DNA from: Pseudomonadota bacterium
Lineage (GTDB): Bacteria > Desulfobacterota > Desulfobulbia > Desulfobulbales > SURF-16
Assembly: GCA_018897105.1 (NCBI GenBank)
Contig: JAHILF010000007.1
Coordinates: forward strand, 14,763-78,762
Length of the DNA stretch: 64,000 bases
Reading direction: 5' to 3'
Shown here: in pieces, positions 1,366-60,747 of the stretch
Layout of the letters: each line of letters begins with the position of its first letter
Position numbering within the stretch: the stretch's first letter is position 1
Notes under the pieces: generated by a model
Database searches by the model: none
Seen by the model: only the letters and a program-made list of their open reading frames with translations
Told to the model about the DNA's origin: nothing
Translations under genes and position numbers: made by a program

Positions 1366-3549
1366 ATGGTAAAATCCAGATTCAGCCTTATCGTGGCTAT
1401 TGCAGCATTTTTACTGTGTTGTTTCCATTCCGTTCACTCCCAAGCCTCAGCCAGCCAAGACCTTTTCCCCGTTTACCCATGCATGAGGGACAATGTCGCT
1501 TTCTGGAAGAAGGTGTACGCGGAATACCCGACCACCAAGGGCTTGATTCATGACAATCGTGATCTGTCAATCATCTATGAGGTGATTGATCTTGTGCCTG
1601 AGGGGCAGTCCGGCGAGAGGGCAACCAACAAGGCGCGGGTCGAACGGGCCAAGGAAAAATACCGGCAGATTCTGCGGTCATTAGCCGGCGGGGGGGCCGC
1701 CCGGACAGATGAAGAAAAAAAGGTGCTGGCTTTTTTCCGCGGGGCATCCTCTTCACAGCTCCTGCAAGCAGTGGATGCCGTTCGTTTTCAACGGTGTCTG
1801 AAGGATCATTTTCTTGATGGTCTGGTCCGTTCCGGGGCCTATCTGGCCGAGATCAAGAAAATATTCAGAGGCTACAATCTGCCGGAGGATCTGGCCTATC
1901 TGCCCCATGTGGAGTCTTCGTTTAATTATAAGGCCTATTCCAAGTTCGGCGCGGCAGGCATCTGGCAGTTTACCCAGTCAACCGGTAAACGTTTCATGAC
2001 CATTGACTATACCCTGGATGAGAGGCGTGATCCCATTCGCGCCACCCATGCCGCGGCCCGCTTTTTAAAAGAAAATCACAAAAAGCTCGGCAGCTGGCCA
2101 TTGGCGCTCACTGCCTATAATCATGGACCAAACGGCATGATGCGCGCCAAAAATCAGCATGGAACCTATGAAAATATCTTTAATAATTATGGCGGCAAGC
2201 TTTTTGGTTTTGCCTCAAGAAATTTCTATTCGGAATTTATTGCCGCCCGGGAAGTGGCAAAAAATTACCGGAAATATTTCGGCAATGTTAAACTGGCGGA
2301 GCCTGTTTCCTTCGTGGAAGTTGCCATACCGGGATATGCGCCGATAAAAGAGCTGTCCCGTCATTTTAAGGTGGATCTGGCCACCTTGGCAGAGCTCAAT
2401 CCTGCCCTCCGAGCCCCGGTGTTCGAGGGCCGCAAGCATGTACCCAAAGGTTACAAACTTCGGCTTCCGGGTAAAAACGGAGAAATGGCAAAACTTGCTT
2501 CGCGCATGCCGGATAAGGCCTTTGCCGACAAACAGCAGCGCAGCCGTTTTTACCAGGTGCAAAAGGGTGATTCAGCCGGGGCCATTGCCAGAAAGCATGG
2601 GGTGCAGCTCGAGGACCTGATTGTCACCAATGGACTCAATGCCCGGGCCGCCATTTATGTAGGACAGAATCTGCGCATCCCCACCCGGGATGAAAAAGTG
2701 GTGCTGTTGGCCAAGGTCGAGACGACTGCAGCAGATATCGTCCCGGCAAAGGGAATGGAAAGTAAAAAAGAGGCGCGGGAGATTGTCACCTTAAAGGCTC
2801 AGACGGTTAAAAAAGCGATCCCGCCCCGGAAAAAGGAAGAGCCTGTCCAGCAGGCTGAGGCCCCTGTCGTCGCCCCTGAACAGCTTGCAGCTGTTGTGGC
2901 GGAAAAAATGCCCCAAGCGGGAAAACAGGTTGAGGAGAAGATCGCGGCTCCGGCGGTGGCTGCTGCGGAGGAGCCGGCAATGGAGGGGACGACGGTTGCC
3001 GAAGAGGAACAGGCACAGCTTGATCAGCCTGAGGTGATTGATGAACTGCCCAAGGTGCCCCTTGAAGAACCGGCCTTTAATCCGGAGGTGGTCACCGCCG
3101 ATCTGCTGGTTGCCGACAGCCGTATTGAAAAGGGGCGCAGCGTGGGCTTCATCCAGGTTGAGGTCGGAGAGACCCTCGGTCACTACGCTGACTGGCTGCA
3201 GGTGCCCACCAGCAGTATTCGGCGCCTCAACGGCCTGCGCTTCGGTCATCCCATTAAACTCGATCAGCGGCTGAAACTCGAATTCACCAAGGTAAGCAAA
3301 GTGGATTTTGAGGAAAAACGTTATGAATACCATAAGGAGATTGAAGAAGATTTCTTTGCCGTTTATAAGATTGAAGGGGCAAGACTGTATCGGATCAAGT
3401 CCGGTGATAACATCTGGCGTCTCTGCCAGGATGAATTTGATCTGCCCTTCTGGCTGATCAGGAAATTCAATACTGCCCATGATTTCAACAATCTGAAGCT
3501 TGATGAGCAGTTAATTATACCGGTTGTAGGGGAAATTGCACCGCAATGA
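1366..3549 (+). CDS. Membrane-bound lytic murein transglycosylase (MltD-like) with LysM repeats
   Basis: Signal peptide, then SLT catalytic motif LPHVESSFNYKAYSKFGAAGIWQF. An A/E/P-rich linker follows, with LysM-like repeats such as YQVQKGDSAGAIARKHGVQLEDLIVTNGL...GQNLRIP and YRIKSGDNIWRLCQDEF. Confidence 0.85.
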   Translation: MVKSRFSLIVAIAAFLLCCFHSVHSQASASQDLFPVYPCMRDNVAFWKKVYAEYPTTKGLIHDNRDLSIIYEVIDLVPEGQSGERATNKARVERAKEKYRQILRSLAGGGAARTDEEKKVLAFFRGASSSQLLQAVDAVRFQRCLKDHFLDGLVRSGAYLAEIKKIFRGYNLPEDLAYLPHVESSFNYKAYSKFGAAGIWQFTQSTGKRFMTIDYTLDERRDPIRATHAAARFLKENHKKLGSWPLALTAYNHGPNGMMRAKNQHGTYENIFNNYGGKLFGFASRNFYSEFIAAREVAKNYRKYFGNVKLAEPVSFVEVAIPGYAPIKELSRHFKVDLATLAELNPALRAPVFEGRKHVPKGYKLRLPGKNGEMAKLASRMPDKAFADKQQRSRFYQVQKGDSAGAIARKHGVQLEDLIVTNGLNARAAIYVGQNLRIPTRDEKVVLLAKVETTAADIVPAKGMESKKEAREIVTLKAQTVKKAIPPRKKEEPVQQAEAPVVAPEQLAAVVAEKMPQAGKQVEEKIAAPAVAAAEEPAMEGTTVAEEEQAQLDQPEVIDELPKVPLEEPAFNPEVVTADLLVADSRIEKGRSVGFIQVEVGETLGHYADWLQVPTSSIRRLNGLRFGHPIKLDQRLKLEFTKVSKVDFEEKRYEYHKEIEEDFFAVYKIEGARLYRIKSGDNIWRLCQDEFDLPFWLIRKFNTAHDFNNLKLDEQLIIPVVGEIAPQ

Positions 3550-6212
3550 GCAGTGATACGCCGCAAATCATCCATCGTCATGATTACCGCGCGCCTGATT
3601 ATCTAATTGATACGGCGCATCTTCATTTTTTCCTGGGGGAAAGACAGGCGGTGGTGACCTCCCGCCTGCATTGCCGACGCAATGGTGCAGGAGAGGCCAA
3701 GCCTCCCCTGGTGCTGGACGGTGAGGAGCTGGAACTGCTGTCAATTTTTCTCGATTCCCGCAAGCTCGCAGACCAAGACTATGTGCTGGGTAAAGAGTCG
3801 CTGACTATCAATCAGGTGCCGGACAGTTTCGAACTGACCATCACCACCCTGATCCGGCCCGAGGAGAACACCTCGCTGGACGGCCTCTATAAATCCAGCG
3901 GCAATTTCTGCACCCAGTGCGAGGCCCAGGGCTTCAGAAAAATCACCTATTTTCTTGACCGGCCTGATGTAATGTGCCGTTTCACCACCACCATTGAGGC
4001 GGACAACTCCGTGCCGGTGCTGTTGTCCAACGGCAATCTCATTGAGACGGGCCAGGTGGCGGGCGACCGGCATTATGCCACCTGGCGGGATCCCTTTCCC
4101 AAACCCTGTTATCTTTTTGCCCTGGTGGCCGGCGATCTGGTCCGGGTGGCCGATACCCATGTGACCGGATCCGGCCGCACTATTGATCTGCATATCTACG
4201 TGCAGAAACATAACAGCGACCGGTGCGATCATGCCCTGCGCTGCCTGAAAGAGGCCATGGCCTGGGATGAGAAGGTTTACGGGCTGGAGTATGACCTTGA
4301 TCTGTTCATGATTGTGGCAGTGGATGATTTCAATATGGGGGCCATGGAAAACAAGGGGCTGAATATCTTCAACTCCAAATACGTGCTGGCCAAACCCCAG
4401 ACCGCTACCGATGCCGATTACGCAGGCATTGAGGGGGTGGTGGCCCATGAGTATTTCCATAACTGGACCGGCAACCGGGTGACCTGCCGTGACTGGTTTC
4501 AGCTCTCCCTCAAAGAGGGCCTTACCGTGTTCCGCGATCAGCAGTTTTCCGCGGACATGACATCTCCCGCGGTCAAGCGCTTAAGCGATGTCAGAATGCT
4601 GCGCAATCTGCAGTTTGTTGAGGACAACGGCCCCATGGCTCATCCGGTCCGGCCTGATTCCTATATCGAAATCAACAACTTCTATACGGTGACGGTGTAT
4701 GAAAAGGGAGCAGAGCTAATCCGTATGATCCATACCCTGCTGGGTGCGGCTGGTTTTCGCCGGGGCATGGATCTTTATTTTGCCCGGCATGACGGCCAGG
4801 CCGTTACCTGCGAGGATTTTGTCCAGGCCATGGAGGATGGCGGCGGAGTGGATCTGAGCCGGTTCCGCTTTTGGTACAGCCAGTCCGGCACCCCTGAGCT
4901 GCGTGTATCAAGCAGTTATGATGAGCAGAGCAGGACCTGCACCCTGCAGGTCCGCCAGAGTTGCCCTCCCACACCGGGACAGGATGATAAAGAACCGTTT
5001 CATATTCCGCTGGCTGTGGGTCTGCTGGATAACCTGGGTAAAGACATCAAATTGTCCGTCAACGGCAAAGAGGCGGCCACGACGGTTGTGCTGGATATCA
5101 AGGAGAGAGAGCAGAGCTTTGTTTTGCATGATATCCGGGAAAAACCGATTCCCTCCCTGCTGCGCGGCTTCAGCGCCCCGGTCAAGCTGCATTATGACTA
5201 TACGGAAGACGAGCTGCGCTTTCTGCTGGCCCATGATAGCGATCCCTTCAACCGCTGGGAGGCTGGGCACCGATTGTCCTGTCGTCTGCTGCTGCGTTTG
5301 ATTGCCGACCTGCAGCAGGGCAAAGAGCTGCGGCTCGATGACGATTTTGTCGTTGTTTTCCAGGCCCTGCTGACCCCGGAAAGCGAGATTGATCCGGCCT
5401 TTCTGGCCGAACTGCTGGTGCTGCCCTCGGAAAAATATCTGGGTGAGCAGCTGGCCATCATCGATGTTGAGGCAATTCATCAGGTCCGGTTGTTTGTCCG
5501 CCGCACCCTGGCGGCCATGCTGCGCGAGTATTTTCTCGAACTCTTTCATGCCAACGCCAGCATGGCGCCGTACACCTATGACCGGCAAAGCGCAGGGAAA
5601 AGAAACCTGAAAAATGTCGCCTTGGCCTATCTGATGCTTAACGATGACAAGGCGATAATGGATATGTGCCTGCGCCAGTTTGAACAGTCGGGCAACATGA
5701 CCGATGTGCTGGCAGCCCTGCAGGCCATTGTCAATAATCCCGACTGCCCGGAACGCAAGAGTGTGCTGGTTTCTTTCTACAGTGAGTGGCACAGGGACAG
5801 TCTGGTGCTGGACAAGTGGTTTTCCCTGCAGGCCACGGCACCGCTGCCCCAGACCCTCGACGAGGTGAAATCTCTGATGGCCCATCCTGCCTTTTCAATA
5901 AAAAATCCCAATAAGGTGCGGTCGCTGATCGGCGCCTTCTGCGGTGCGAATCAGCTCTGTTTCCATGATAAAAGCGGGGAGGGGTATCGTTTCCTGGCCG
6001 ATCAGGTGCTGGCCATCGACCGGTTCAACCATCAGATTGCGGCCCGTATGCTGACGCCGCTCAGCCGCTGGCAGCGTTTTGACGTTCCCCGGCAGCATTT
6101 GATGTGCCGGCAGCTGGAGAGGATTCTGGCCGGCAGCGAACTTTCAAAAGACGTGTATGAGGTGGCCTCAAAGAGCTTGAGCGCCGCTTCCTCTGGCCCG
6201 GCCCGCAATTAA
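3546..6212 (+). CDS. pepN: Aminopeptidase N (M1 family)
   Basis: GAMEN exopeptidase motif and HEYFHNWTGNRVTCRDWFQLSLKEG (HExxH-x18-E). Length is 888 aa. An ATGA overlap joins it to the upstream stop. Confidence 0.95.
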   Translation: MSSDTPQIIHRHDYRAPDYLIDTAHLHFFLGERQAVVTSRLHCRRNGAGEAKPPLVLDGEELELLSIFLDSRKLADQDYVLGKESLTINQVPDSFELTITTLIRPEENTSLDGLYKSSGNFCTQCEAQGFRKITYFLDRPDVMCRFTTTIEADNSVPVLLSNGNLIETGQVAGDRHYATWRDPFPKPCYLFALVAGDLVRVADTHVTGSGRTIDLHIYVQKHNSDRCDHALRCLKEAMAWDEKVYGLEYDLDLFMIVAVDDFNMGAMENKGLNIFNSKYVLAKPQTATDADYAGIEGVVAHEYFHNWTGNRVTCRDWFQLSLKEGLTVFRDQQFSADMTSPAVKRLSDVRMLRNLQFVEDNGPMAHPVRPDSYIEINNFYTVTVYEKGAELIRMIHTLLGAAGFRRGMDLYFARHDGQAVTCEDFVQAMEDGGGVDLSRFRFWYSQSGTPELRVSSSYDEQSRTCTLQVRQSCPPTPGQDDKEPFHIPLAVGLLDNLGKDIKLSVNGKEAATTVVLDIKEREQSFVLHDIREKPIPSLLRGFSAPVKLHYDYTEDELRFLLAHDSDPFNRWEAGHRLSCRLLLRLIADLQQGKELRLDDDFVVVFQALLTPESEIDPAFLAELLVLPSEKYLGEQLAIIDVEAIHQVRLFVRRTLAAMLREYFLELFHANASMAPYTYDRQSAGKRNLKNVALAYLMLNDDKAIMDMCLRQFEQSGNMTDVLAALQAIVNNPDCPERKSVLVSFYSEWHRDSLVLDKWFSLQATAPLPQTLDEVKSLMAHPAFSIKNPNKVRSLIGAFCGANQLCFHDKSGEGYRFLADQVLAIDRFNHQIAARMLTPLSRWQRFDVPRQHLMCRQLERILAGSELSKDVYEVASKSLSAASSGPARN

Positions 6213-24116: not shown

Positions 24117-24156
24117 TTGAAGAATATTCTTCAATGACTTGGAGGATATTCTTCAG
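24117..24156. promoter_or_regulatory. Tandem palindromic upstream activator sites (putative binding sites of the adjacent NtrC-type regulator)
   Basis: Perfect 18-bp palindrome TTGAAGAATATTCTTCAA (24117-24134) and a related site TTGGAGGATATTCTTCAG (24139-24156). Centres are 22 bp apart and about 130-170 bp upstream of the sigma-54 promoter. Confidence 0.45.
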
Positions 24157-25499
24157 TTGTCCAGGGCATACTTTTCCAGCCGGTAAATAAGCACGTGGCG
24201 CGGAATCTTCAGCAGACGGGCCGCCTCGGAACGGTTGCCGCCGCTGATGGCCAGGGCCTTGAGGATCAGGCCCTTTTCCACCTCTTCCAGGGAAAGACCC
24301 TCCGGCGGAATGTCGGGCAGGGAGGGGTCGGAAGAGCAAGTGCGGCCGGGAAGTAGGATCTCGGCCTCATCAATGACGTCTTTTTCCCGTAGAATAATGC
24401 AGCGTTCCACCACGTTCTGCAGTTCCCTGATATTGCCGGGCCAGTGATAGGACTGCAGGCGGGCAAGGGCTGCAGGGGTGAATGACACCTGGGGAGGCGC
24501 TTCGTGTTTTTTCAAGAAATGGGCGACCAGGGCAGGGATATCTTCACGTCTGTCACGCAGCGGCGGGAGATGCAGGGGGATGACTGACAGCCGGTAGAAG
24601 AGATCGTCCCGGAAATTTCCCTTGGCAATTTCAGCACGTAAATCCCGATTGGTGGCGGCGATGATGCGCACATCCACTGTTTCCGTGCGATCGCTGCCCA
24701 CCGGTTCAATCTGCTTTTCCTGCAGCGCGCGGAGAAATTTCACCTGCATCTCGGGCAGCAATTCGCCGATTTCATCGAGAAACAGGGTGCCATGATGGGC
24801 GGCCTGAAAACGTCCCTGCCGGTTCTGCACCGCCCCGGTGAAGGCCCCTTTCACATGGCCGAAAAGTTCGCTCTCGATCAGGGGGGCAGGGATGGCCGCG
24901 CAGTTCACCGCTACAAAGGCTTCTTTTTTTCTCGGGCTGTGCTGGTGGATGAGGCGTGACAGCACCTCCTTGCCGGTGCCCGACTCACCGCTGATCAGCA
25001 CCGTGGCGTCGGATTCCGCCACCTTGAGGGCGGTGTGCAGCAGTTCGGCCATGGCGCTGTTCACCGTCACCATGCCTTCGACCCCGGTCAGCCGGTTGAT
25101 CTCCTGGGACAGGGAGCGGGCGCGGCTCTTCAGGCTTTGCATTTCCAGGGCCTTGCGGCAGGAGAGAATCAGGGTGTCCCGGTCAAAGGGTTTGGTGATG
25201 AAGGTGAAGGCCCCCTGGTGCATGGCCTGCACCGCCATTTCAATGGAGCCGTAGGCGGTGATGATGATCACCGGAACGTCCGGGGCCTCCTGTTTGAATC
25301 GTTTCAGCAGCTCCAGGCCGCTGGCGTCACCCAGTTCAACATCGGTGACCACCAGGTCGGGAGGATGGCGCTGGAAAGCATCAATGGCCTGGCGACCGTT
25401 GGCCGCCGTCTTTACCGAGAAACCGGCCTTGGCCAGGTTATACTCGGTCACGCGGCGCAGGCTTTCATCATCATCGATAAGGAGAATATGGTTGTTCAT
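24153..25499 (-). CDS. Sigma-54-dependent response regulator (NtrC/ZraR family)
   Basis: REC (LLIDDDES...LVVTDVELGD), AAA+ with GESGTGKEV and GAFTGA, and a C-terminal Fis-type HTH (SEAARLLKIPRHVLIYRL). Confidence 0.9.
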   Translation of the reverse strand: MNNHILLIDDDESLRRVTEYNLAKAGFSVKTAANGRQAIDAFQRHPPDLVVTDVELGDASGLELLKRFKQEAPDVPVIIITAYGSIEMAVQAMHQGAFTFITKPFDRDTLILSCRKALEMQSLKSRARSLSQEINRLTGVEGMVTVNSAMAELLHTALKVAESDATVLISGESGTGKEVLSRLIHQHSPRKKEAFVAVNCAAIPAPLIESELFGHVKGAFTGAVQNRQGRFQAAHHGTLFLDEIGELLPEMQVKFLRALQEKQIEPVGSDRTETVDVRIIAATNRDLRAEIAKGNFRDDLFYRLSVIPLHLPPLRDRREDIPALVAHFLKKHEAPPQVSFTPAALARLQSYHWPGNIRELQNVVERCIILREKDVIDEAEILLPGRTCSSDPSLPDIPPEGLSLEEVEKGLILKALAISGGNRSEAARLLKIPRHVLIYRLEKYALDN

Positions 25500-26656
25500 G
25501 GTCGTTGCTCGATTTTCTGCGTGACCGGCAGGATGACGGTAAAGCCGGCCCCGCCTTCAGGCGCTGATTCAATGGTGATCCGTCCGCCGTAACTTTCAAC
25601 GATCTTGGCGCTGATGGCCAGCCCCAGACCGGTGCCGTCCTGTCGCCCGCTGTAAAAGGGGGCAAAGACCTTGACCCGTTCATTTTCTGCAATGCCGGGG
25701 CCGTTGTCGGCGACAAGAATCCTGGTTTCTTTGTCATCCTGCTGCACCTCAAGACGGATCAGGCCGTTCTGGGCCACCGCCTCGATGCTGTTAAGCAGCA
25801 GGTTGATGAATACCTGGGACATCTTATTGCCGTCAACCTGGGTGTCTTTGGCCGCCTCGGGGATGAGGCGCCTGAGGGTGATGCCTTTTTTCCGGATTCT
25901 GTTGTCAACCAGGGTGACGACCCGGTCAAGCACGCTGATGAGCGGTTCGCGGCTGATGGGCTGGGAGGCAGGTTGCTGGTTTCTTGAGTAGCGCAGCACC
26001 TCTTCCACGGTGGTGTTGAGCCGGGCCGTCTCCTTGGCCAGGATTTCGGCAAATTCGCGTTTGGGATGGCCGGGCGGGAATTCGTCCAGGAAGATTTCCG
26101 CCGTGCCTTTGATAGCGCCCAGGGGGTTTTTGATTTCATGGGCCAGGGAGGCGGAAAGCTGACCCAGGGCGGAGAGCTTCTGGCTGACCCGCAGCTGCTC
26201 TTCCGCTTCAATGAGCAGTCCAGCCTCTTCATGGAGACGGGCGTAGGATTTTTCCAGTTTTTCAGAAAGTTCCTGATATTTTTCCTTGAGACGCGACTCC
26301 CGGCTGGCAATGGTGCCCACCAGACCGCCGGCCGCCAGATAGAGGCCGATTTCCGTCAGCTCGCCCAGGAAAAAATCATAGTTCATCTGGTGAAAGATAT
26401 GGAGATGGGGAATGAAGGCCAGAATGGTGAAAATTGCCAGCAGCAGGCCACCGCCCGCGCCATACAGCAGTGCGGCAACGACGATGGGGAAATAACTCAG
26501 ACGCCGGTATGTTTCATGGAGAAAAACCTTGCCAGCCGGGGTTACCCCATGCAGCACGCCAATGGCCACCACCATGAGAAGGAGAAAAAAGAGGATGGTT
26601 CCTGATCGTTTGCTTTTGGTCACGGTCGAGAGGCTCGAAATTCTGCATTTTGCCAA
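25496..26656 (-). CDS. Membrane sensor histidine kinase (HisKA + HATPase_c)
   Basis: N-terminal TM helices, H-box SASLAHEIKNPLGAI, N/G boxes (LLNSIEAV, DNGPGI, GTGLGLAI). A 4-nt overlap joins it to the regulator gene. Confidence 0.85.
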   Translation of the reverse strand: MAKCRISSLSTVTKSKRSGTILFFLLLMVVAIGVLHGVTPAGKVFLHETYRRLSYFPIVVAALLYGAGGGLLLAIFTILAFIPHLHIFHQMNYDFFLGELTEIGLYLAAGGLVGTIASRESRLKEKYQELSEKLEKSYARLHEEAGLLIEAEEQLRVSQKLSALGQLSASLAHEIKNPLGAIKGTAEIFLDEFPPGHPKREFAEILAKETARLNTTVEEVLRYSRNQQPASQPISREPLISVLDRVVTLVDNRIRKKGITLRRLIPEAAKDTQVDGNKMSQVFINLLLNSIEAVAQNGLIRLEVQQDDKETRILVADNGPGIAENERVKVFAPFYSGRQDGTGLGLAISAKIVESYGGRITIESAPEGGAGFTVILPVTQKIEQRP

Positions 26657-26869: not shown

Positions 26870-27649
26870 TCAGGGCAGGGATTTGAGCTTCTTCTGGATC
26901 ATCTGCAGGTCATGCCAGGCCCCTTTTTTCAGTTCCTGGGTCCTGAGCAGCAGGGTCGGATGAAAGGTGGGCATGAGCGGGATGCCCTGGAAGTCATGGA
27001 ATCGTCCCCGCAGGCTGAGGAGAGACTGGGAGGTTTTGAGCAAGGTCTGGCTGGCGGTCTGGCCCATGGTGCAGATGATTTTCGGTTTGATCAGCTCAAT
27101 CTGCCGGATGAGAAAGGGCAGGCAGGCGGATGTTCCGGCGGTTGTCGTGCTGCCCTCCGGCGGCACGCATTTGACGATGTTGGTCAGAAAAATATCGTCC
27201 AGGGACAGGTTGATAGCACCCAGCATTTTTTTCAGCAGTTCACGGGGGGCACCGCTGATCGGTCTGTTTGCCGCTGCTTCCTCGGCGCCGGGGGGATCAC
27301 TGATGATCAACAGGGCCAGACCCTGCCGGGCGGGTCCTTCACCAAAGATCATCTGCTGCCGTGATGTTCCCGGGGGACACAGTTGGCAGCTCTCGAGGGT
27401 GAGTCTGAGATCATCAAGGGTTTGCCGGTCTGCTGTGTCCGGTCCGACAGTGTCGACGGGCTTTGCGGTTGCGGCGGCCGGCATGGGGGTGGGGGAAAAG
27501 GGCTGCGTTTTTATCTTTGCCGACGAGGGGTTGAGAAAACTCTTTAATTCCGGGGATAAGGGGTAGTCGAGTTCACAATGGCGGTGAAAAGCGACAAGGT
27601 TTCGTGTTTCCTGCAGCAGGCTGCTTAAGGAAGAGAGATCATCCTTCAT
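26870..27649 (-). CDS. Uracil-DNA glycosylase superfamily protein (family 4-like) with N-terminal extension
   Basis: [12 protein letters not shown]...[11 protein letters not shown]...[12 protein letters not shown]...[10 protein letters not shown]...RGRF...[11 protein letters not shown] parallels family-4 UDG blocks. Motif A is SDPPG rather than GEAPG. I prefer the ATG at 27649; the longer track ORF overlaps trmFO by 98 nt. Confidence 0.75.
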
Positions 27650-28976
27650 GAAGCGCTGCCTGCCATTCGCGCAGAGCGGCGAGGGCCTTTTCAGCCCGCA
27701 ACTGGCCGCGGAATTTTTTCGGCACCTTTTTGCCATCCTGGCTGGTCAGAGTGGCAAAGAGGCCGAAGTTGATGTTGGACGGCTGAAAACGGGCGGCATC
27801 GGTGTCGGTGAGATGGCGGATGAGCGCACCGAGCGCCGTCTCGGCAGGCGGGGGGACCGGTTTGCGGCCCTGCAGCAGGTGCGCAGCGTTGATGCCCGCC
27901 AGCAGACCCATGGCCGTTGATTCCACGTAGCCCTCCACCCCGGTGAGCTGCCCGGCCAGCAGGATGTCCTGTCTTGTTTTAAGCTGCAGGGTCGGCTCCA
28001 GGACCTTGGGTCCGCAGACAAAGGTATTACGGTGGATGCTGCCCAGCCGTTCAAACTCCGCCTGCTCCATGCCCGGAATCAGGCGGAAAACCCGCTGCTG
28101 TTCAGAATAGGTCAGTTTGGTCTGAAATCCCACCATATTGTAGTGGGTTCCCTCCATATTCTCCTTTCTGAGCTGGACCACGGCGTACGGGTCACGGCCG
28201 GTGCGGGGATCAGACAGGCCAACCGGCTTCATGGGTCCGAAACGCAGGGTGTCCACCCCCCGTTCAAGCATGACCTCAATGGGCAGGCAGCCCTCGAAAT
28301 ATTTTTTCTCCTCAAAGGATTTCAGCTTCACCTTGTCCGCCGCTGCCAGTTCTGTGATAAAGGTCAGGTACTGGGCCTTGTCCATGGGACAGTTGAGATA
28401 ATCTCCCGGTCCATCATCATAGCGGGAGGCCTGGTAGATAATCTCCCTGTTCAGCGAATCGGCGGTGATAATCGGGGCAATGGCATCGTAAAAGGCGAGA
28501 TGCTCGCCGGTGATTTCCTGCAGGGAGCGGGCCAGGCCGTCAGCGGTGAGGGGACCGGTGGCCAGGATTAATAGCGGATGGCTTTCATCAGTCAGGGGAA
28601 TCTCGCTGATTTCCTCGCGGCGGATTTCAATTGCCGGGAGAGACTCGATTCTTTCCGTGATAAAACGGGCAAACAGACTGCGGTCAACCGCCAGAGCCTT
28701 GCCGGCCGGGACCTTGGTCACGGCAGCGGCAGCCATGATCAGGGAGTCAAGTTGACGCATTTCCTCCTTCAGCAGACCGACGGCCGAGGATGGGTCATCG
28801 GAGCGAAACGAGTTGCTGCAGACCAGTTCCGCCAGGTCGGAGGAGGAGTGGGCAGGGCTGAAACGCTGTGGTTTCATGTCGTAGAGGATCACCCGGAAGC
28901 CGCGTTTTGCCGCCTGCCAGGCGGCTTCACAGCCGGCCAGCCCTCCGCCGATGATAGTCAGGAAACGGTTATCCAT
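27639..28976 (-). CDS. trmFO: Methylenetetrahydrofolate-tRNA-(uracil54-C5)-methyltransferase
   Basis: [24 protein letters not shown] fold and Gid/TrmFO-length (445 aa) conserved blocks ([24 protein letters not shown]). Confidence 0.9.
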
Positions 28977-29190
28977 TAAATACCCAGCTCTTTTTTGCTT
29001 CCCTATGTTCAGACCGCATTACGAGGAATGAGTTTCATAATCTATATTTAGTGATCATGCATGTATAAAAGGAAGTGGAAAAACAATCAACTATACATAA
29101 TTTTGTTTTGTTTGACAGCAAAATAACAGTATGGCCGGGGCTGCTTGTGGTTTGCGGATTATCTGCTGATTAATGGAGAATTGGGGATGA

Positions 29191-29226
29191 AAAAGGCCGG
29201 TGTTGTGAGGGGACACCGGCCTTTTT
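29191..29226. terminator. Bidirectional intrinsic-terminator hairpin (unit 1)
   Basis: AAAAA-GGCCGGTGT-tgtgagggg-ACACCGGCC-TTTTT. Confidence 0.65.
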
Positions 29227-29351
29227 CATGTGCTAAGGAGAAAAAAAGAAGAAAAGTGAGAAAAAACGTACTGGTAAGAAGTTTTCATTCCTACAGTCTT
29301 AATAATTAAGATTCATCCGTTGCTGAAAGGTTCCAAAAAAAAATCAGGCAT

Positions 29352-29387
29352 AAAAAAACCGGTGATGGGGCGTCACCGGTTTTTTTA
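29352..29387. terminator. Bidirectional intrinsic-terminator hairpin (unit 2)
   Basis: AAAAAAA-CCGGTGA-tggggcg-TCACCGG-TTTTTTT. Confidence 0.7.
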
Positions 29388-29499
29388 CTACAACAAGAAA
29401 GAGGAGAAAATGAGAAGAAAAAAACTGGTAAGGAGTGTCAATTCTTACAGTCTTAAATGATTAGAGCCTTTGTTTCAGAATAGGTTCCAGAAAAAAGGC

Positions 29500-29540
29500 A
29501 AAAAAAAAGCCGGTGATGAGGGTCACCGGCTTTCTGTTTC
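29500..29540. terminator. Intrinsic-terminator hairpin (unit 3), better on the minus strand
   Basis: AAAAAAAAA-GCCGGTGA-tgaggg-TCACCGGC-TTTCTGTTT. This gives nine U on the minus-strand reading and only an interrupted U-run on the plus strand. Confidence 0.6.
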
Positions 29541-29882
29541 CATTGCTGGAAACACTGAGAAAAATGAAAAGTGAAAAAGTAAGGTAACTGAGGATGTTAA
29601 CTCTTACATTTTACAATACATATAACGCTCACTTTCCCAAAAAGGTTCCATGGGAAAATATTTTTTTTTACATTTCCCGAATTGGCTGTTGGCAGGGAGT
29701 TGCGTAAGTTATTTCTTTATATTTTGGTTGACAAGAATGGGGTGGTAGAGTATTTGAGAGAGTTATTAATCTTAATTTAAGTATTAGCATCTTCTATTCT
29801 CGTCAATATTCTCGCCCTGCGCTGCCTCTTGGCCCTGTTTGATGCCGTTGAAGTTTTTGCTGAGCACTTAAAGGAGTACAGT

Positions 29883-30149
29883 ATGAAACTTTTTATCGGC
29901 AACCTCCCATACAATATGAATGATACGGAACTGAACACCCTCTGCACTCCCTTCGGAGATGTTGTCAGTGCTAAAGTTATTACCGACCATTTTTCAGGCC
30001 AGACAAAAGGCTTTGGCTTTGTTGAGATGTCCAGCAGGCCTGAAGGCCATAAGGTCATGGAAGGGCTCAACGGCACAGAGGTCAGTCATCGTAAATTGAT
30101 CTGCAACGAAGCCAAGCCGCAAAAGAAGAAAGGTGCACGCCGCCGTTAA
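29883..30149 (+). CDS. RRM-type (RNP-1/RNP-2) RNA-binding protein
   Basis: MKLFIGNLPYNM (RNP2) and KGFGFVEM (RNP1), with a basic tail KPQKKKGARRR. The ATG at 29883 follows AAAGGAG. The track ORF start at 29829 is probably too long. Confidence 0.85.
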   Translation: MKLFIGNLPYNMNDTELNTLCTPFGDVVSAKVITDHFSGQTKGFGFVEMSSRPEGHKVMEGLNGTEVSHRKLICNEAKPQKKKGARRR

Positions 30150-50780: not shown

Positions 50781-50966
50781 ATGGAAGATCGCTGGTTATC
50801 CGTTGAGGAAATAGCCAAATACTTAGGTGTAAGCAAGGACACCATATACAACTGGATCAACGGGAAAAGTATGCCTGCCAATAAAATTGGACGATTTTGG
50901 AAGTTCAAGCGTGAAGAGGTTGATGAGTGGGTTAAATCCGGTGGAGCCGCGGAAAGTGACAGATAG
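50781..50966 (+). CDS. Excisionase/MerR-type helix-turn-helix DNA-binding protein (putative BREX regulator)
   Basis: WLSVEEIAKYLGVSKDTIYNWINGKSMPANKIGRFWKFKREEVDEWV matches the Xis-family HTH pattern. 61 aa, ending 10 nt before brxA. Confidence 0.8.
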   Translation: MEDRWLSVEEIAKYLGVSKDTIYNWINGKSMPANKIGRFWKFKREEVDEWVKSGGAAESDR

Positions 50967-50976
50967 TAAATACAAA

Positions 50977-51582
50977 ATGTCCTTCACTTCCGGAGGTCTG
51001 TTTTTCAATGAATCTCTTCAACTCGCTGAGTTGTTTCATGAAACTGGCGATTGGCAGAAAACCCGTGACCAAGCTTTGTCTGAGAACCTTCTGCAGGCTC
51101 GAACCGAGAGCAGTTCCAAGCGTAGAGTCTGGGAAATATGCTCTCGCTTGGGGTTGTTAACAGAAGATCAGCTCCAATTGCTTCTTTTCAGTTCGCGACA
51201 GGAACAGCAATATCTCCTCTGGGTAGCTGTCTGTAAGTGTTATCCCTTCATTCGAGATTTTATGGTCGAAATTGCACGGGAAAAATTTCTTCGTATGGAT
51301 CTGCATCTTCAACCTCAAGATTTCGAAATATTCTTTGAAGATAAAGCCGAATGGCATGAAGAGCTTGAACAACTCCGTGACTCGACGAGGAAAAGACTCA
51401 GGCAGGCCCTCTTTCAAATCATGCGGGAAGCAGAAATTATTTCACCCGGGAATATGATTATTCCCTCCCTGCTTACTAAACAATTAACCAAGGTGCTTGC
51501 AGCAGATAACCCCTCCTGGCTTGCGGTGCTCCCTATATCTGACGCGGATATCAACTCATGGTTAGCATTAACTACGACATAG
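50977..51582 (+). CDS. brxA: BREX protein BrxA (DUF1819)
   Basis: About 200 aa. ...SENLLQARTESSSKRRVWEICSRL..LTEDQLQLL...EQQYLLWVAVCKCYPFIRDFMVEIAREKF follows the DUF1819 pattern. It sits first in the canonical BREX-1 order. Confidence 0.8.
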   Translation: MSFTSGGLFFNESLQLAELFHETGDWQKTRDQALSENLLQARTESSSKRRVWEICSRLGLLTEDQLQLLLFSSRQEQQYLLWVAVCKCYPFIRDFMVEIAREKFLRMDLHLQPQDFEIFFEDKAEWHEELEQLRDSTRKRLRQALFQIMREAEIISPGNMIIPSLLTKQLTKVLAADNPSWLAVLPISDADINSWLALTTT

Positions 51583-52178
51583 GCTCATTTTCAATTCAAG
51601 ACAGCTTCGATCATCTGCTGAAACTCATCAGCAGTGAACGGTTTCTTAAGAAGCAGGGGCTTGGCAATGAAGTTCCCTTTTTCATATGTCCCTTCCCACC
51701 TCAGAAAGCCGCAGACATGGACAAGCTTCGTATTCAGTTGCGAAATAAACTCGAACAACAGGGCATTCGTATACTTGACATAAACCTCTATGATCTGGCG
51801 GTTGACCTCCTGAAAAAACGTAACATTTGGGATCGCATCCTTGAAACTGAGAAATCTGTAGATAAAGAGCAACTCAAAGAACTCCTGCAAGGAGTTCTTG
51901 ATTCACAATCACACTTAGTTCCTGCCATAGCAGAAGAAATGGCTAAGACTGATTTTGATGTGATGTTTATCTCAGGAGTTGGTGAAGTCTTTCCATACAT
52001 CCGCTCCCACAATGTCCTGAACAATCTGCAAAGTACTGCCAAAGACCAGCCAACCGTCATGTTTTTCCCAGGTGCTTACACCCATTCCTTAGAAACTGGA
52101 GCATCCCTGGATCTGTTTGGTCGCTTACATGATGATAAGTATTACAGAGCATTCAATATTTTCCACTGCGAGATTTAA
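51558..52178 (+). CDS. brxB: BREX protein BrxB (DUF1788)
   Basis: 206 aa. GLGNEVPFFICPFPP... and C-terminal PTVMFFPGAY...LDLFGRLHDDKYYRAFNIF match DUF1788. Confidence 0.8.
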   Translation: MVSINYDIGSFSIQDSFDHLLKLISSERFLKKQGLGNEVPFFICPFPPQKAADMDKLRIQLRNKLEQQGIRILDINLYDLAVDLLKKRNIWDRILETEKSVDKEQLKELLQGVLDSQSHLVPAIAEEMAKTDFDVMFISGVGEVFPYIRSHNVLNNLQSTAKDQPTVMFFPGAYTHSLETGASLDLFGRLHDDKYYRAFNIFHCEI

Positions 52179-52213
52179 ACCGTATAAATCACGTTCTCAT
52201 AAAAGGAAAACTC

Positions 52214-55200
52214 ATGCTGTTAAATGAAATATTCGAGAAACCGGTAGGTCGATATATCGAAGGTGTTATCAAGGCTGATGACGAAGCCAGCCTGCGCTTG
52301 GAAGTAGAGGAATACGTTCTCACCAATGAGGTTGCCAAACGGCTGGAAAGCTTTCTTGATGCCTATAAAAACTATGACGGTGCAAACGGTGTCTGGGTGT
52401 CCGGATTCTTTGGTTCCGGCAAATCGCATCTCCTGAAGATTCTTGCTTTGCTCCTTGAGAACCGTTCCATTGACGGCACACCCGTACTCGACATGTTTCT
52501 TCCCAAATGTTCTGACAATGAAATCCTGCGCGGGGACCTTAAACGGGCAGTAGCAATTCCTTCAAAATCCATCCTCTTTAATATTGACCAGAAAGCTGAC
52601 GTTATCAGCAAAACCCAAATCGACGCCCTTCTCTCCGTCTTTGTAAAGGTGTTTGATGAGATGTGCGGTTACTACGGGAAACATGGACATATTGCCCAGT
52701 TTGAGCGTGATCTTGACAGCCGTGACCTGTATGGCAAATTCAAAGATGCCTATAAAAAAATTGCCACCCAAGAGTGGACTGTCGGCCGGGAACAGGCATT
52801 ATTCGAAGGTCATAATATTGCCAAAGCCTACTCGCAGATCACGGGTACTGACGAAGCGGCCGCAAATGGCATTCTGGACAAATACCGCAGTGATTACAAA
52901 CTCTCAATTGAAGATTTTGCCGAGCAGATTAATGCCTATATCGAAGGGCAGGAGGATAATTTTCGCTTAAACTTTTTTGTTGATGAGGTGGGGCAATACG
53001 TTGCTGACAACACAAAGCTCATGACCAACCTGCAGACTGTGGCGGAAAGTCTGGCCACCAAATGCAGAGGTCGGGCCTGGGTCATTGTTACTGCCCAGGA
53101 GGTTCTTGATGATGTTGTAGGTGAAATGCACAAAAAACAGGCCAATGATTTTTCCAAGATTCAAGCCCGTTTTGCCAACCGCATGAAGCTCACCGGTGCT
53201 AATGTTGACGAGGTTATCCAGAAAAGGCTTCTGCTCAAAAACGAAAGTGGCGTGTCGACACTGTCTGATGTCTATCACGAACAGGTAAACAACTTTAAGA
53301 CCCTGTTTGATTTTGGTGACGGCTCCCAGACCTACAAAAATTTTAGGGATCGGGATCACTTCATTCACTCCTATCCTTTCATCCCCTATCAGTTTACCCT
53401 GTTCCAGGCCGCTATCCAGAATCTGTCTCAGCACAACGCTTTCGAAGGCAAACATAGTTCCGTAGGCGAGCGATCAATGCTTGGCGTGTTTCAGCATGTG
53501 GCAAAGCATATCGCCAACCACACTATCAGAGAGCTGGCCACCTTTGATCTTATGTTTGAAGGAATTCGCACTGCTCTTAAATCACAGATACAGAAGGCTG
53601 TCCTGGTGGCGGAAAAGAACCTTGGTGATGAGTTTGCCGTCCGTGTGCTCAAGGCGCTGTTTCTGGTGAAGTATGTCAAGTCTTTCAAGGCCACTGTACG
53701 TAACATCAGCATCCTCATGCTGGATAACTTTGACCGCAATATCTCCGATCTGCAAAAACAAGTGGATGCAGCCTTGAACCTGCTTGAACAGCAAACCTAT
53801 ATCCAACGCAATGGTGAGCTGTACGAATTCCTCACCGATGAAGAAAAGGATGTGGAGCAGGAGATTAAAAATACGGATATTGAAAACTCGGACGTTTCAG
53901 ATGAGCTGGCTAAAATTGTCTTTGACCACACCTTGAAATCAAGAAAGATTCGTTACGATGACAATGGCCAAGATTATGCTTTTTCCCGCAAACTTGATGA
54001 CCGCCTGTGCGGAAAGGCGCAGGAGCTTACCATCCATATTATCAGCCCGTTTCATGAGCAGGTTGGCAACGAAACCACCCTTGCCATGCAGTCCATGGCA
54101 AAAGATGAACTGTTGGTTATCATGCCCGCAGATAACCGTTTTCTCCATGACCTGCTGCTCTACAAAAAAACAGACAAGTATGTCCGTCTGAACATGAATC
54201 AGACCCAGCAGGAGACCGTTAAACGAATTCTTACCGATAAGAGTTTCCAGAATATTGAGCGATACAAAGATCTGCAGGATAAGGCCAGGGATCTGCTCGG
54301 CAAGGCAAAACTCATTATCAACCTTAAACCCCTTGAGTTAAGCAGCACCGATCCCCAGACCAAAATCACCCAGGGCTTTTATGATCTTCTGCGGCGCACC
54401 TATCCAAACCTGAGTATGCTTCGCGGGATCAAATACAATGAGAATGACATAGCAAATTATCTCAGACCAACAGGCGCAACACTCTTTGGTGATGATGACA
54501 AAATGATGAGTGAGGCAGAGCAGGAGATGCTCTCCTTTATCCAAGGCAACAGCCGTAATGGGGTGCGAACAACTCTGAAAAATTTGGTGGAGCGCTTCGA
54601 GAAGAAACCATATGGCTGGTATTTTGCCTCTATCCTCTGTATCACGGCAAAACTCTGCGCCCGTGAAAAGATCGAGGTCAGATCCGATTCAAACATTCTG
54701 GAAGATGCGGTACTGGAAAAGGCCCTGCGCAACACCCAGGGGCATGGCAATGTCATCCTTGATCCCCAGCTTGATTTTACATCATCCCAGGTTCGGCAGT
54801 TAAAGGAGTTTTATGCTGACTTCTTTGATGCGCCGCCCAAAGCAAACGAGGCAAAGCCGCTGGCCAAGGAGACTGGAGCCGCTTTCCAGGATCTCTTGCA
54901 TGCTCTTGAGCCAATGGCAGTCATGGTGTCACATTATCCATTTCTGATAGTACTGAAAGAACCAATCAGTCAACTTCGGGAGCTTGTCGGCAAAGAGTAT
55001 AGCTTCTATCTGACTGCACTTGCCAAGCTTGAAGACAAGCTTCTCGACATGAAAGATGATGTGGTGGAACCGGTACGACGTTTCATGTCAGGTCACCCTA
55101 AAGATATATATGACGAGAGCAGGCGTTTCATTGAAGAGCAGCATGCCAATTTCTCAGACCTGAAAGGTGATGAAGGTCAACAAGCCCGTGACATCCTGGC

Positions 55201-55744
55201 AGACAGTCAATGTTTTAAGGGCAACAGGATGCAGCAGCTCAAGGGCCTGGTTGATAAGCTGAAAGAAGAAGTGGCCACCCTGCTTGATGAGACAAAAAAA
55301 CAGGCTCAAGAGACTGTTCAAGCACTCAAAGATGAACTCACTGGCATGGAAGATTATGAGCTGCTCGATACAAACCGGCAGGATGAGTTGTTGCAATCTT
55401 TCACCACATTTGAACAGAACCTACAACACCAGAAGATCATAGCCGTTATTCGTGAGAGTGTTCGCAAATTTAAGGAAAATGAATATCTGCAGCTGCTTTC
55501 CAGGAAAGACGGCTGGATACAGGAACAACAGAAAAAAGCCGAACCCGCCAATGACGAAAAGAAAGATTCCGGCAAGAAGGTTGAAACCCGGGAACGAAAA
55601 ATTGAATACATCAGCAGCAAAAAGATATCTGTTGCTTTCAGCAAAACGCTCCTTGTTAATGAACAGGATGTGGATAGTTATTTAAAGGCCTTACGTGAGG
55701 CCTATCTTTCAGAGATCAACAGTGGAAAGCGGGTTCAGGTTTAA
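52214..55744 (+). CDS. brxC: BREX ATPase BrxC/PglY
   Basis: 1176 aa. The Walker A GFFGSGKSHLLKIL lies near the N-terminus. Size and position match BrxC. Confidence 0.9.
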   Translation: MLLNEIFEKPVGRYIEGVIKADDEASLRLEVEEYVLTNEVAKRLESFLDAYKNYDGANGVWVSGFFGSGKSHLLKILALLLENRSIDGTPVLDMFLPKCSDNEILRGDLKRAVAIPSKSILFNIDQKADVISKTQIDALLSVFVKVFDEMCGYYGKHGHIAQFERDLDSRDLYGKFKDAYKKIATQEWTVGREQALFEGHNIAKAYSQITGTDEAAANGILDKYRSDYKLSIEDFAEQINAYIEGQEDNFRLNFFVDEVGQYVADNTKLMTNLQTVAESLATKCRGRAWVIVTAQEVLDDVVGEMHKKQANDFSKIQARFANRMKLTGANVDEVIQKRLLLKNESGVSTLSDVYHEQVNNFKTLFDFGDGSQTYKNFRDRDHFIHSYPFIPYQFTLFQAAIQNLSQHNAFEGKHSSVGERSMLGVFQHVAKHIANHTIRELATFDLMFEGIRTALKSQIQKAVLVAEKNLGDEFAVRVLKALFLVKYVKSFKATVRNISILMLDNFDRNISDLQKQVDAALNLLEQQTYIQRNGELYEFLTDEEKDVEQEIKNTDIENSDVSDELAKIVFDHTLKSRKIRYDDNGQDYAFSRKLDDRLCGKAQELTIHIISPFHEQVGNETTLAMQSMAKDELLVIMPADNRFLHDLLLYKKTDKYVRLNMNQTQQETVKRILTDKSFQNIERYKDLQDKARDLLGKAKLIINLKPLELSSTDPQTKITQGFYDLLRRTYPNLSMLRGIKYNENDIANYLRPTGATLFGDDDKMMSEAEQEMLSFIQGNSRNGVRTTLKNLVERFEKKPYGWYFASILCITAKLCAREKIEVRSDSNILEDAVLEKALRNTQGHGNVILDPQLDFTSSQVRQLKEFYADFFDAPPKANEAKPLAKETGAAFQDLLHALEPMAVMVSHYPFLIVLKEPISQLRELVGKEYSFYLTALAKLEDKLLDMKDDVVEPVRRFMSGHPKDIYDESRRFIEEQHANFSDLKGDEGQQARDILADSQCFKGNRMQQLKGLVDKLKEEVATLLDETKKQAQETVQALKDELTGMEDYELLDTNRQDELLQSFTTFEQNLQHQKIIAVIRESVRKFKENEYLQLLSRKDGWIQEQQKKAEPANDEKKDSGKKVETRERKIEYISSKKISVAFSKTLLVNEQDVDSYLKALREAYLSEINSGKRVQV

Positions 55745-55759
55745 AAAGGTTGAAAATTT

Positions 55760-58700: not shown

Positions 58701-59266
58701 TCATCCCCATCCTCGACCAGGACTGGTTCATCGACGACATCACCTCCCGCTTCAACGAATTCCTCAAGGTCACCTTTGGTCAGGATCATTACGAGGAAAA
58801 TCTGAAATTCATTAAAGAGTCCATCGGCAAGGACATCCGCAAATATTTCCTCAATGATTTCTACAAAGACCACCTGAAAACATACAAAAAACGCCCCATC
58901 TACTGGCTCTTCTCAAGCCCCAAGGGCAGTTTCAACGCCCTCATCTACATGCACCGCTATCGCCCGGATACCGTTTCCATCGTGCTTAACGATTACCTGC
59001 GGGAGTTTCACACCAAACTCATCTCCCGTCGTGCACACCTTGAGGCCATCAGCATCAGTGCCTCCGCCTCCCAGACTGAAAAAACCAAGGCCCTCAAAGA
59101 AATAGAAAAACTCAAGAAAATCATCGCGGAACTGGATGATTACGAACGAGACATCCTCTATCCCCTTGCCACCCAGAAAATCGAAATCGACCTCGATGAC
59201 GGCGTAAAAGTGAATTACCCTAAATTTGGCAAGGCGTTAAAAGCATTGCCGGGGTTAAGCGAATGA
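55760..59266 (+). CDS. pglX: BREX N6-adenine DNA methyltransferase PglX
   Basis: 1168 aa. AdoMet motif ICDPACGSGHML and catalytic NPPYMGGKG (aa ~463). N-terminal ..AYIWFNRFCALRFMD.. is typical of PglX/type IIG-like enzymes. Confidence 0.9.
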   Translation: MNTNELKKFAQAARRQLMEQVGARLKLVLLMDSAEIREKEKVVKDLQEQIGKTSKDAVIERVAYIWFNRFCALRFMDVNRYTKIGTVSPAEGFSQPEILQDAKQGHIDDELQVDREKVLHLLGGQAKATDPQQEAYRLLLVAVCNSYHQLMPFMFERIADYTELLMPDDLLSENSILQAVRGALTAVSCQDVEVIGWLYQFYISEKKDQVFAGLKNNKKITPENIPAATQLFTPHWIVRYLVENSLGRLWLLNRPDSQLAGQMDYYIRPEEPETDFLKINSPEEIKICDPACGSGHMLTYTFDLLSAIYEEEGYDAKDIPNLILTKNLYGIEIDERAGELAAFALTMKARAKYRRFFRKSVQPNICVLENIVFSEDELKPYIDAVGRDLFTMNLQTTLHQFQEADNFGSLIRPEVTDVTHIRRIIDEKRLGSKLFLAQTHPKVLRALEQADYLSQKYHVVLANPPYMGGKGMNGRLGAWAKDNYPASKSDLFAMFIERNLDLVQKRGMVAMITMQSWMFLSSFEKLRARLLGENTILSMAHLGARAFDSIGGEVVSTTAFVIENVNRPEYKGGYLRLVDGNSEAEKEAAIHESITNLNCGWLYRASAAEFKKIPGSPIAYWVSDNLLNSFSFDANVGVIAKPRQGMATTNNNLFLRFWSEVNLKKIGFECESEDEAHESGKKWFPYNKGGPLRKWYGNYFHVVNFKNRGEVICNYIDNTPGARVGSNGRVINREFYFKPGITWSDITTDSFAARVSPRGFIFDIKGSSGFPSLDNRYSVLGLLSSKLTPIYMKVLNPTSTFQVGDISRIPYQHTNVNNIIDSLVQTSTKDWDSYETSWDFTRFPLLHPDTRQPTLKTTYQKLRDHWQEMTLDMQRLEEENNRIFIDAYGLQDELTPEVPLSEITLTCNPHYRYSGDKSDEELEALLLDDTLKEFLSYAVGCMFGRYSLDKPGLILANQGQTIEDYLQQIPEPSFPPDKDNVIPILDQDWFIDDITSRFNEFLKVTFGQDHYEENLKFIKESIGKDIRKYFLNDFYKDHLKTYKKRPIYWLFSSPKGSFNALIYMHRYRPDTVSIVLNDYLREFHTKLISRRAHLEAISISASASQTEKTKALKEIEKLKKIIAELDDYERDILYPLATQKIEIDLDDGVKVNYPKFGKALKALPGLSE

Positions 59267-60678: not shown

Positions 60679-60747
60679 AGTATTCAGTAAGCAGTTGTCA
60701 GTTTTCATCAACTGCACACTGAAGACTGACAACTGATAACTTTTTAT

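Follow-up and report, generated by a model that had tools for sequence, protein, structure and literature searches.

What is encoded in the gap between trmFO and the divergently oriented gene of an RRM_1-domain protein in a Desulfobulbales genome of the SURF-16 lineage (assembly GCA_018897105.1)? The question concerns a 64,000-nucleotide (nt) stretch of contig JAHILF010000007.1, positions 14,763 to 78,762, referred to below as the window. An initial annotation, made by a model from the letters alone, had described here an ORF-free gap of about 900 bp with three tandem paralogous units of about 155 nt, and had read them as genes of small RNAs (sRNAs) transcribed from the minus strand. The gap measures 906 bp and contains only short, overlapping, spurious open reading frames (ORFs) of 40–54 amino acids (aa) besides the units, which are very probably sRNA genes on the minus strand (Table 1).

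A repeat search and a three-way alignment delimited three complete paralogous units, arranged head to tail on the minus strand at 29187–29659 in the orientation of trmFO, with a period of 154–161 nt and a mean column identity of 72%. Read on the minus strand, each unit consists of a T-run, a GGAACCT box, about 27 nt, a 5' hairpin, a pyrimidine tract and a GC-rich hairpin followed by a U-run. The TGGAACC box that had been reported for each unit was found on the minus strand at 29329–35, 29483–89 and 29644–50; it is not enriched across the whole window (7 matches, 10.6 expected). The GC-rich hairpins, bordered by runs of A and T, correspond to perfect or near-perfect inverted repeats at 29187–29229, 29351–29387 and 29495–29544. 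The supposed homopurine/homopyrimidine tract is pyrimidine-rich on the minus strand (81–88% in the three window copies) and not strictly homopolymeric. The second hairpin, present in all three units, is longer and of a different sequence in unit 3. The units are far from chance, since nhmmer E-values for related copies range from 1e-36 to 1e-6 and the folding z-scores of the units from -5.0 to -6.8.

Three units that are complete from promoter to terminator emerge only when the minus strand is read. The smaller strand arguments of the initial annotation were likewise recovered from the letters, namely the U-runs behind the hairpins (5, 7 and 9 long on the minus strand; 5, 7 and a broken run on the plus strand) and a substitution in unit 1 that gives a G-U pair on the minus strand and an A-C mismatch on the plus strand. 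The predicted RNAs, 103–116 nt long, agree with the RNAs of about 100 nt that had been envisaged, with a 5' hairpin, a CU-rich tract containing an anti-Shine–Dalgarno-like CUCC and a terminator.

Distribution, structure and conservation of the family

Relatives were first sought using TrmFO as a syntenic anchor, with one genome per species, which gave eight Desulfobulbaceae/Desulfurivibrio-like metagenome-assembled genomes (MAGs; TrmFO 77–92% identical) along with 72 loci that are unrelated. A profile built on the three units of the window revealed arrays of 2–5 copies in all eight MAGs, upstream of trmFO and on its strand, and no matches in the 72 unrelated trmFO loci. A metagenome scan with a degenerate promoter–terminator pattern contributed two more arrays among the matches listed (L098 with four copies and L184 with three), 118 of the 120 pattern matches among those listed being chance matches outside the family. 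Six further carriers with 1–3 copies each (L202–L206 and L208) were reached via TrmFO homologues 72–82% identical; two TrmFO loci at 71–74% identity (L207, L209) contained no family copy. The total is 45 copies in 16 related assemblies, the window included, with 1–5 copies in each, nearly all of them upstream of trmFO or adk-trmFO and on the same strand. The adk gene lies between the array and trmFO in L006–L008, L202 and L204–L206 (at approximately 3200–4000 in each), where TrmFO identity is at most 82%; the window and its closest relatives have no adk in this place, and the RRM and DEAD-box neighbours are retained only in the closer genomes. Copy numbers from one to five among close relatives constitute a natural dosage series.

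One complete copy, L204 851–965, is found outside the adk/trmFO locus, with a chemoreceptor gene on one side and an Lcl_C-domain gene on the other; it possesses the promoter GGAACCT-N16-CTCTTA, the middle hairpin and the C-rich terminator loop, and its location shows that the unit can exist as an independent gene. A divergent relative, L208 2010–2151, adjoins two HSP20 genes and combines the same kind of promoter (GGAACCT-N16-GTCTTT) with a 5' hairpin and a tract rich in C and U (UCUCUUCCUCCUCUCUCUCCUC), followed by a terminator that is unrelated to the family and has no C-rich loop. It hints that the design of a promoter plus a CU tract may reach beyond the alignable family.

In close relatives, three paralog types can be distinguished: A, distal to trmFO; B, in the middle, with one to three copies; and E, proximal. 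They correspond to window units 3, 2 and 1, respectively, and type A has an extra middle hairpin. All copies fold as a 5' hairpin at the predicted start, an unpaired tract of 16–42 nt and a terminator. The middle hairpin is also present in distant counterparts of type A, where the arms differ by paired changes (GUUUCCA/UGGAAAC versus CUUCCGG/CGGAAGG). A covariance model (CM) search of related genomes, which the initial annotation had suggested, found the family conserved, with compensatory changes in both hairpins. The model, built from 19 type B and E copies on the sense strand, finds all other copies, with scores of 34–121 bits on the sense strand and at most 29 bits on the antisense strand. 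In the CM alignment of 34 sequences, 95.1% of the cells are paired, as compared to 32–59% in slid controls; 11 of the 19 pairs, including seven of the nine in the 5' hairpin, are altered on both sides, and none of 500 shuffles reached the observed pairing values.

The type A transcript of the window recurs in five other genomes with 97–100% identity. The corresponding identities to the window are 71–98% for the type A promoter region (50 nt), 74–82% for the third-codon positions of trmFO and 49–67% for the array–trmFO spacer; judging from these values, the strongest constraint falls on the transcribed sequence itself, with conservation peaking in the non-terminator part of the type A transcript. 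This bears on a reading in which the units are not genes at all, but a bidirectional terminator or insulator stack, a long trmFO leader, the remnants of a repeat or mobile element or, in a related version, a type I toxin–antitoxin repeat (Ibs/Sib). Such a reading is very improbable: it can point to hairpins whose A and T runs could terminate transcription both ways and to CU-rich sense ORFs that give hydrophobic peptides of 17–20 aa in some copies, but it has to contend with the location of the conservation maximum outside the terminator, an invariant promoter-like box with fixed spacing before every unit, the covarying 5' hairpin, the L204 copy away from trmFO, a sense ORF frame that is not conserved (L7_a and L8_a have no such ORF) and a separate sigma-70-like site between the last terminator and trmFO. 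Type I toxin–antitoxin repeats of the Ibs/Sib and Ldr/Rdl-like kinds were considered as a candidate class and rejected, the ORFs of both strands being variable and several copies having none.

No conserved ORF was found on either strand of the copies; such ORFs as there are share neither frame nor length nor sequence from copy to copy, and several copies lack them altogether. The possibility that the plus strand is the functional one, yielding purine-rich CsrA-type GGA sponges or tiny Lys/Arg-rich peptides behind GAGGAG-AAA-AUG, is the least credible of those considered and can be given hardly any weight. On the plus strand the terminator at 29187–29229 has no preceding unit, no terminator follows the third unit, and no promoter motif is present. 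The loop of the type A hairpin does read UGAGGAU on this strand, which we take to resemble the CsrA-binding consensus, but GGA occurs only 2.7 times per copy on average on the antisense strand. A strong Shine–Dalgarno (SD) sequence with an AUG exists on the plus strand in several copies, but the ORFs behind it are of different frames, lengths (6–40 aa) and sequences, and many copies have none, among them those of the most conserved type A, which offers at best a 7-aa plus-strand ORF. The CM scores given above also favour the sense strand, though the model was built on it. A CsrB/RsmZ-type CsrA sponge was rejected as a class on account of too few GGA and the incomplete units on the plus strand.

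The Rfam 15 scan of the whole window returned no matches at gathering thresholds, in keeping with the initial annotation, which recognised no known RNA family. The best sub-threshold scores, Thr_leader (34.6 bits versus 55) and ylbH (32 versus 50), are probably terminator-driven. The regulatory RNAs of the Desulfobulbaceae/Desulfurivibrio group, whose members are uncultured bacteria of the sulfur cycle recorded mainly in metagenomes, have hardly been charted, and a search of the literature on sRNAs of Desulfurivibrio, Desulfobulbaceae or Deltaproteobacteria yielded nothing relevant and no sRNA description for this lineage. The present set, clean and alignable, with 45 copies and covarying helices, represents a candidate new RNA family.

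The promoter-like box

The initial annotation had placed sigma-70 -35/-10 hexamers downstream of the TGGAACC boxes. Such hexamers can be read in the sequence, but the portion of the unit that contains their -35 parts is the least conserved one, and a promoter scan finds none at the units, so this proposal is not retained. Promoter positions were counted in the first 31 copies, anchored on GGAAC. The pentamer is present in all 31; the next base is C in 29 copies and T in two, the base after it (+6) is always T, and positions -8 to -5 relative to the anchor are T in 28–30 copies. The 16 nt after the box are variable and are followed by TCT(T/A)A, with TC in 21/31; type A has GTTATA with a C in front, and L7_b and L8_b read GGAACTT...GCGTCTTA. 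A conserved T-A-A-G follows about 7 nt after the -10 box and marks the beginning of the 5' hairpin. Four of the copies found later carry -35 variants (TGAAC, GGAACCC, GGAACAT and GGAACCA). Across the 64 kb of the window, only units 1 and 2 carry GGAACYT-N16-TCT (0.22 matches expected), and no other instances of the promoter motif were found there.

The published sigma-E consensus comprises GGAACTT(TT) at -35 and GTC(AAA) at -10 and stands directly 5' of the sRNA genes rybB and micA (PMC1804206, PMC6648896). The arrays conform, as a motif match only, to the sigma-E pattern of GGAACTT, a spacer of about 16 nt and GTC/TCNAA. The promoter is probably of the extracytoplasmic function (ECF)/sigma-E type, with GGAACCT at -35, a 16-nt spacer, a TCTTAA-like -10 and a predicted start about 7 nt further on. 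The TGGAACC box is assigned to an ECF-type -35 element because it matches the sigma-E consensus, the motif is rare in the window, the sigma-54 GC is missing and the sigma-70 -35 hexamers fall into the variable spacer. A sigma-54 promoter (TGGCAC-N5-TTGC) was rejected: GG is invariant, but there is no conserved GC 9–11 nt downstream, the anchored positions 10–13 being mixed.

Alternatively, the minus-strand sRNAs may be real but not ECF-dependent, with GGAACCT serving as the site of an activator, e.g., a response regulator, that acts with the housekeeping sigma factor and an AT-rich -10 element (TAATTA or TATAAT-like). An AT-rich block does follow the TCT box, T occupies the anchored position 33 in 29 of the 31 copies, one copy (L204 800–975) has a perfect TATAAT, and LhrC, the closest functional analogue discussed below, is driven by a two-component system. 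We nevertheless regard this arrangement as unlikely, since the box, one asymmetric heptamer, shows neither dyad nor direct repeat, the distance from GGAACC to the AT block is about 20 nt, the sigma-70 -35 position falls in variable sequence, the sigma-70-type promoter scan is negative at the units, and the heptamer together with the 16-nt spacing matches the sigma-E consensus. As an ECF-type element, the motif could help to delimit the regulon of an ECF sigma factor in these genomes.

Pyrimidine tracts and the proposed mode of action

The unpaired tracts of the family contain a mean of 87% pyrimidine and only 0–4 G. In the 31 copies measured, C accounts for 70% of the terminator-loop bases and G for 2%, and such C-rich loops are, in our judgement, unusual for plain terminators. 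CUCC or CCUC is present in 45/45 copies and CUCCUUA in 18 of the 45; the latter, found in the unit 1 tract among others, resembles the 3' end of 16S rRNA. The pattern CAU-Y(3-9)-CUC occurs in 36/45 copies, as compared to about 5% of shuffled tracts, and is the reverse complement of GAG-R(3-9)-AUG, that is, of an SD sequence, an A-rich spacer and a start codon. Because CAU-Y(3-9)-CUC(C) complements SD plus AUG, the RNAs most likely pair with the translation-initiation regions (TIRs) of mRNAs.

A close parallel to this layout is found in LhrC1-5 of Listeria monocytogenes, multicopy sRNAs of about 100 nt that are induced by cell-envelope stress; they carry redundant CU-rich motifs (CUCCC...UUUU) at three sites, in the loops of the 5' hairpin and the terminator and in the single-stranded linker, and binding of these sites to the SD region of lapB has been shown experimentally (PMC4132741). 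The three-site CU-rich layout is common to both groups, although in the present family the motif of the 5' loop is clear only in type A (AUCCUCA); the LhrC RNAs are under the LisRK two-component system in a Gram-positive host, whereas an ECF-type promoter is predicted here. With no homology and no Rfam match, the likeness is a resemblance and not membership. By analogy with this layout of CU-rich sites, translational repression at initiation regions is the most likely function.

The mechanism that we favour by a small measure is that of stress-induced, ECF-driven RNAs pairing at translation starts. Each RNA would be transcribed from its own ECF promoter and ended by its own intrinsic terminator at about 103–116 nt; the 5' hairpin would be protective, and the G-poor pyrimidine tract would be exposed as an unpaired region. 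We infer a cognate ECF sigma factor that, when activated by a stress signal, would have the RNAs made, and these would then block ribosome binding by base pairing at the starts of putative target mRNAs; gene dosage, from one to five copies, may set the strength of the response.

Several observations weigh against this mechanism or reduce the force of the numbers behind it. The starts, ends and expression of the transcripts are all predicted. The -10 element resembles GTC only in part, most copies having ATCT and type A having GTT. A search for an ECF sigma gene, which covered the window and about 4 kb to the left of it, found none. All 45 copies being homologous, the motif counts given above do not represent independent events; the alignment behind the covariation values was likewise fitted to the model, and its sequences are related. 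An RNAduplex scan of about 55 translation starts of the window showed no enrichment, TIR energies equal to background and no convincing target, the top matches being GC-rich artefacts, one of them on a spurious ORF; a scan limited to the window is uninformative, since full genomes are needed.

Perhaps, instead, the RNAs act mainly as decoys or partners of proteins, the polypyrimidine tracts binding the RRM protein, Hfq or S1 and the copies providing titration capacity. RRM domains often bind U/C-rich single strands, the RRM_1 gene divergently adjoins the array in the window and in nine of the 15 other assemblies, and high copy number with redundant motifs is typical of sponge RNAs. Since adjacency holds in just these nine, the RRM_1 link is treated as context only; L006–L008 and L204–L206 keep the RNAs without it, and the conserved CAU...CUCC register corresponds to SD plus AUG, a point in favour of RNA–RNA pairing. 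On balance, a primary decoy role is improbable. We attach a similarly low likelihood to a bolder scheme in which the array would be the RNA arm of an ECF-sigma stress response, not known so far from this lineage, and a generic brake on initiation regions with the neighbouring RRM protein as a dedicated chaperone; here, a UUCAUUUUUUCUCC-type tract would pair at once with the SD and the AUG-AAA start of many mRNAs for secreted proteins and lipoproteins. Were this so, it would be, to our knowledge, the first partnership of such a kind between a bacterial RRM protein and sRNAs.

Pairing near translation starts, as proposed for the family, is also the mode of action of the sigma-E sRNAs MicA, RybB and MicL and of Vibrio VrrA and MicV, which target envelope-protein mRNAs (PMC1804206, PMC4102768, PMC2628432). 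The common features are free-standing genes of about 70–140 nt, a GGAACTT-type -35, a GTC/TC-type -10 and an intrinsic terminator. The Rfam searches showed no homology (MicC 25.9 bits versus 90 and VrrA 23.2 versus 50, with MicA and RybB absent at E<=10). The seed of the present RNAs would be the internal CU tract together with the C-rich terminator loop, unlike the 5'-terminal seeds of the sigma-E sRNAs; the genes are tandemly amplified (1–5 copies), the host is Desulfobulbaceae-like, and the sigma dependence is putative.

Tandem arrays of two to four homologous, stress-induced modules are known from the alphaproteobacterial cuckoo RNAs, including CcsR1-4, which carry CCUCCUCCC loops (PMC4615179, PMC8034643). 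Tandem modules with anti-SD-like C/U motifs are thus common to both, and the cuckoo loop motif CCUCCUCCC is found in none of the 45 copies. CcsR1-4 are processed from a transcript shared with a DUF1127 gene, whereas every unit of the present arrays has a predicted promoter and terminator of its own. With Vibrio Qrr1-5, the similarities comprise paralogous sRNAs of about 100 nt, own alternative-sigma promoters and dosage by copy number; the Qrr genes are dispersed and depend on sigma-54 with LuxO, and the sigma-54 -12 GC is not conserved here.

The family belongs to none of the sigma-E sRNAs, LhrC or cuckoo/CcsR groups and is a new family of a known design. It offers another independent case of the combination seen in MicA/RybB, LhrC and cuckoo RNAs, i.e., a stress promoter, multiple copies and CU-rich seeds directed against ribosome-binding sites. 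The finding is solid and its kind unsurprising; its value would rise sharply if targets or the RRM-protein link were shown.

Gene neighbourhood and other features of the window

The coordinates of the units, their predicted parts and the flanking features are collected in Table 1. The RRM_1 gene is followed by a DEAD-box helicase gene.

Table 1. Predicted sRNA units, their parts and flanking features, in window positions.
Feature	Position	Strand	Details
Unit 3, type A, distal from trmFO	29500..29615	minus	predicted 116-nt sRNA; CM score 57.8 bits
Unit 3 5' hairpin	29614-29571	minus	loop AUCCUCA
Unit 3 unpaired tract		minus	UUUUCAUUUUUCUCAG; predicted fold
Unit 3 middle hairpin	29554-29535	minus	predicted fold
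Unit 3 terminator	29534-29505	minus	loop CCCUCA, then U9
Unit 3 putative promoter	29621..29659	minus	T-rich 29659-29650; -35 GGAACCT 29649-29643; 16-nt spacer
Unit 3 -10-like element	29626-29621	minus	GTTATA; C in front, giving CGTT
Unit 2, type B	29352..29454	minus	predicted 103-nt sRNA; CM score 120.6 bits
Unit 2 5' hairpin	29454-29421	minus	predicted fold
Unit 2 unpaired tract		minus	UUUCUUCUCAUUUUCUCCUCUUUCUUGUUGUA; predicted fold
Unit 2 terminator	29386-29352	minus	loop CGCCCCA, then U7
Unit 2 putative promoter	29460..29498	minus	T-run 29498-29489; -35 GGAACCT 29488-29482; 16-nt spacer; -10 TCTAAT 29465-29460
Unit 1, type E, proximal to trmFO	29190..29300	minus	predicted 111-nt sRNA; CM score 98.4 bits
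Unit 1 5' hairpin	29297-29270	minus	predicted fold
Unit 1 unpaired tract		minus	40 nt; contains CUCCUUA
Unit 1 terminator	29226-29190	minus	loop CCCCUCACA, then U5
Unit 1 putative promoter	29306..29344	minus	T9 run 29344-29335; -35 GGAACCT 29334-29328; 16-nt spacer; -10 TCTTAA 29311-29306
Sigma-70-like site	29118-29090		CTGTCA-17-TATAGT; between last terminator and trmFO; promoter scan
trmFO	27639-28976	minus	Pfam GIDA, E 8e-98; syntenic anchor downstream of array, same strand, separate from the RNAs
RRM_1-domain gene	29883-30149	plus	88 aa; Pfam; divergent from array

The 217 nt located 5' of the RRM gene (29666–29882) are 81–92% identical across five related genomes, as compared to 49–67% for the array–trmFO spacer, and this high identity suggests a conserved leader or regulatory region; a TTGACA hexamer is found inside it. 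A pair made up of a histidine kinase and a response regulator, the latter sigma-54-dependent, is encoded on the trmFO strand at 24153–26656, downstream of trmFO and a UDG-family gene, and no evidence ties this pair to the RNAs. Further along the window, a type 1 BREX (bacteriophage exclusion) phage-defence cluster at 50887–63243 comprises BrxA, BrxB, BrxC, an Eco57I/PglX-like methylase and PglZ, with an extra gene containing Schlafen/AlbA_2 and helix-turn-helix (HTH) domains (59263–60678) inserted between the methylase and PglZ.

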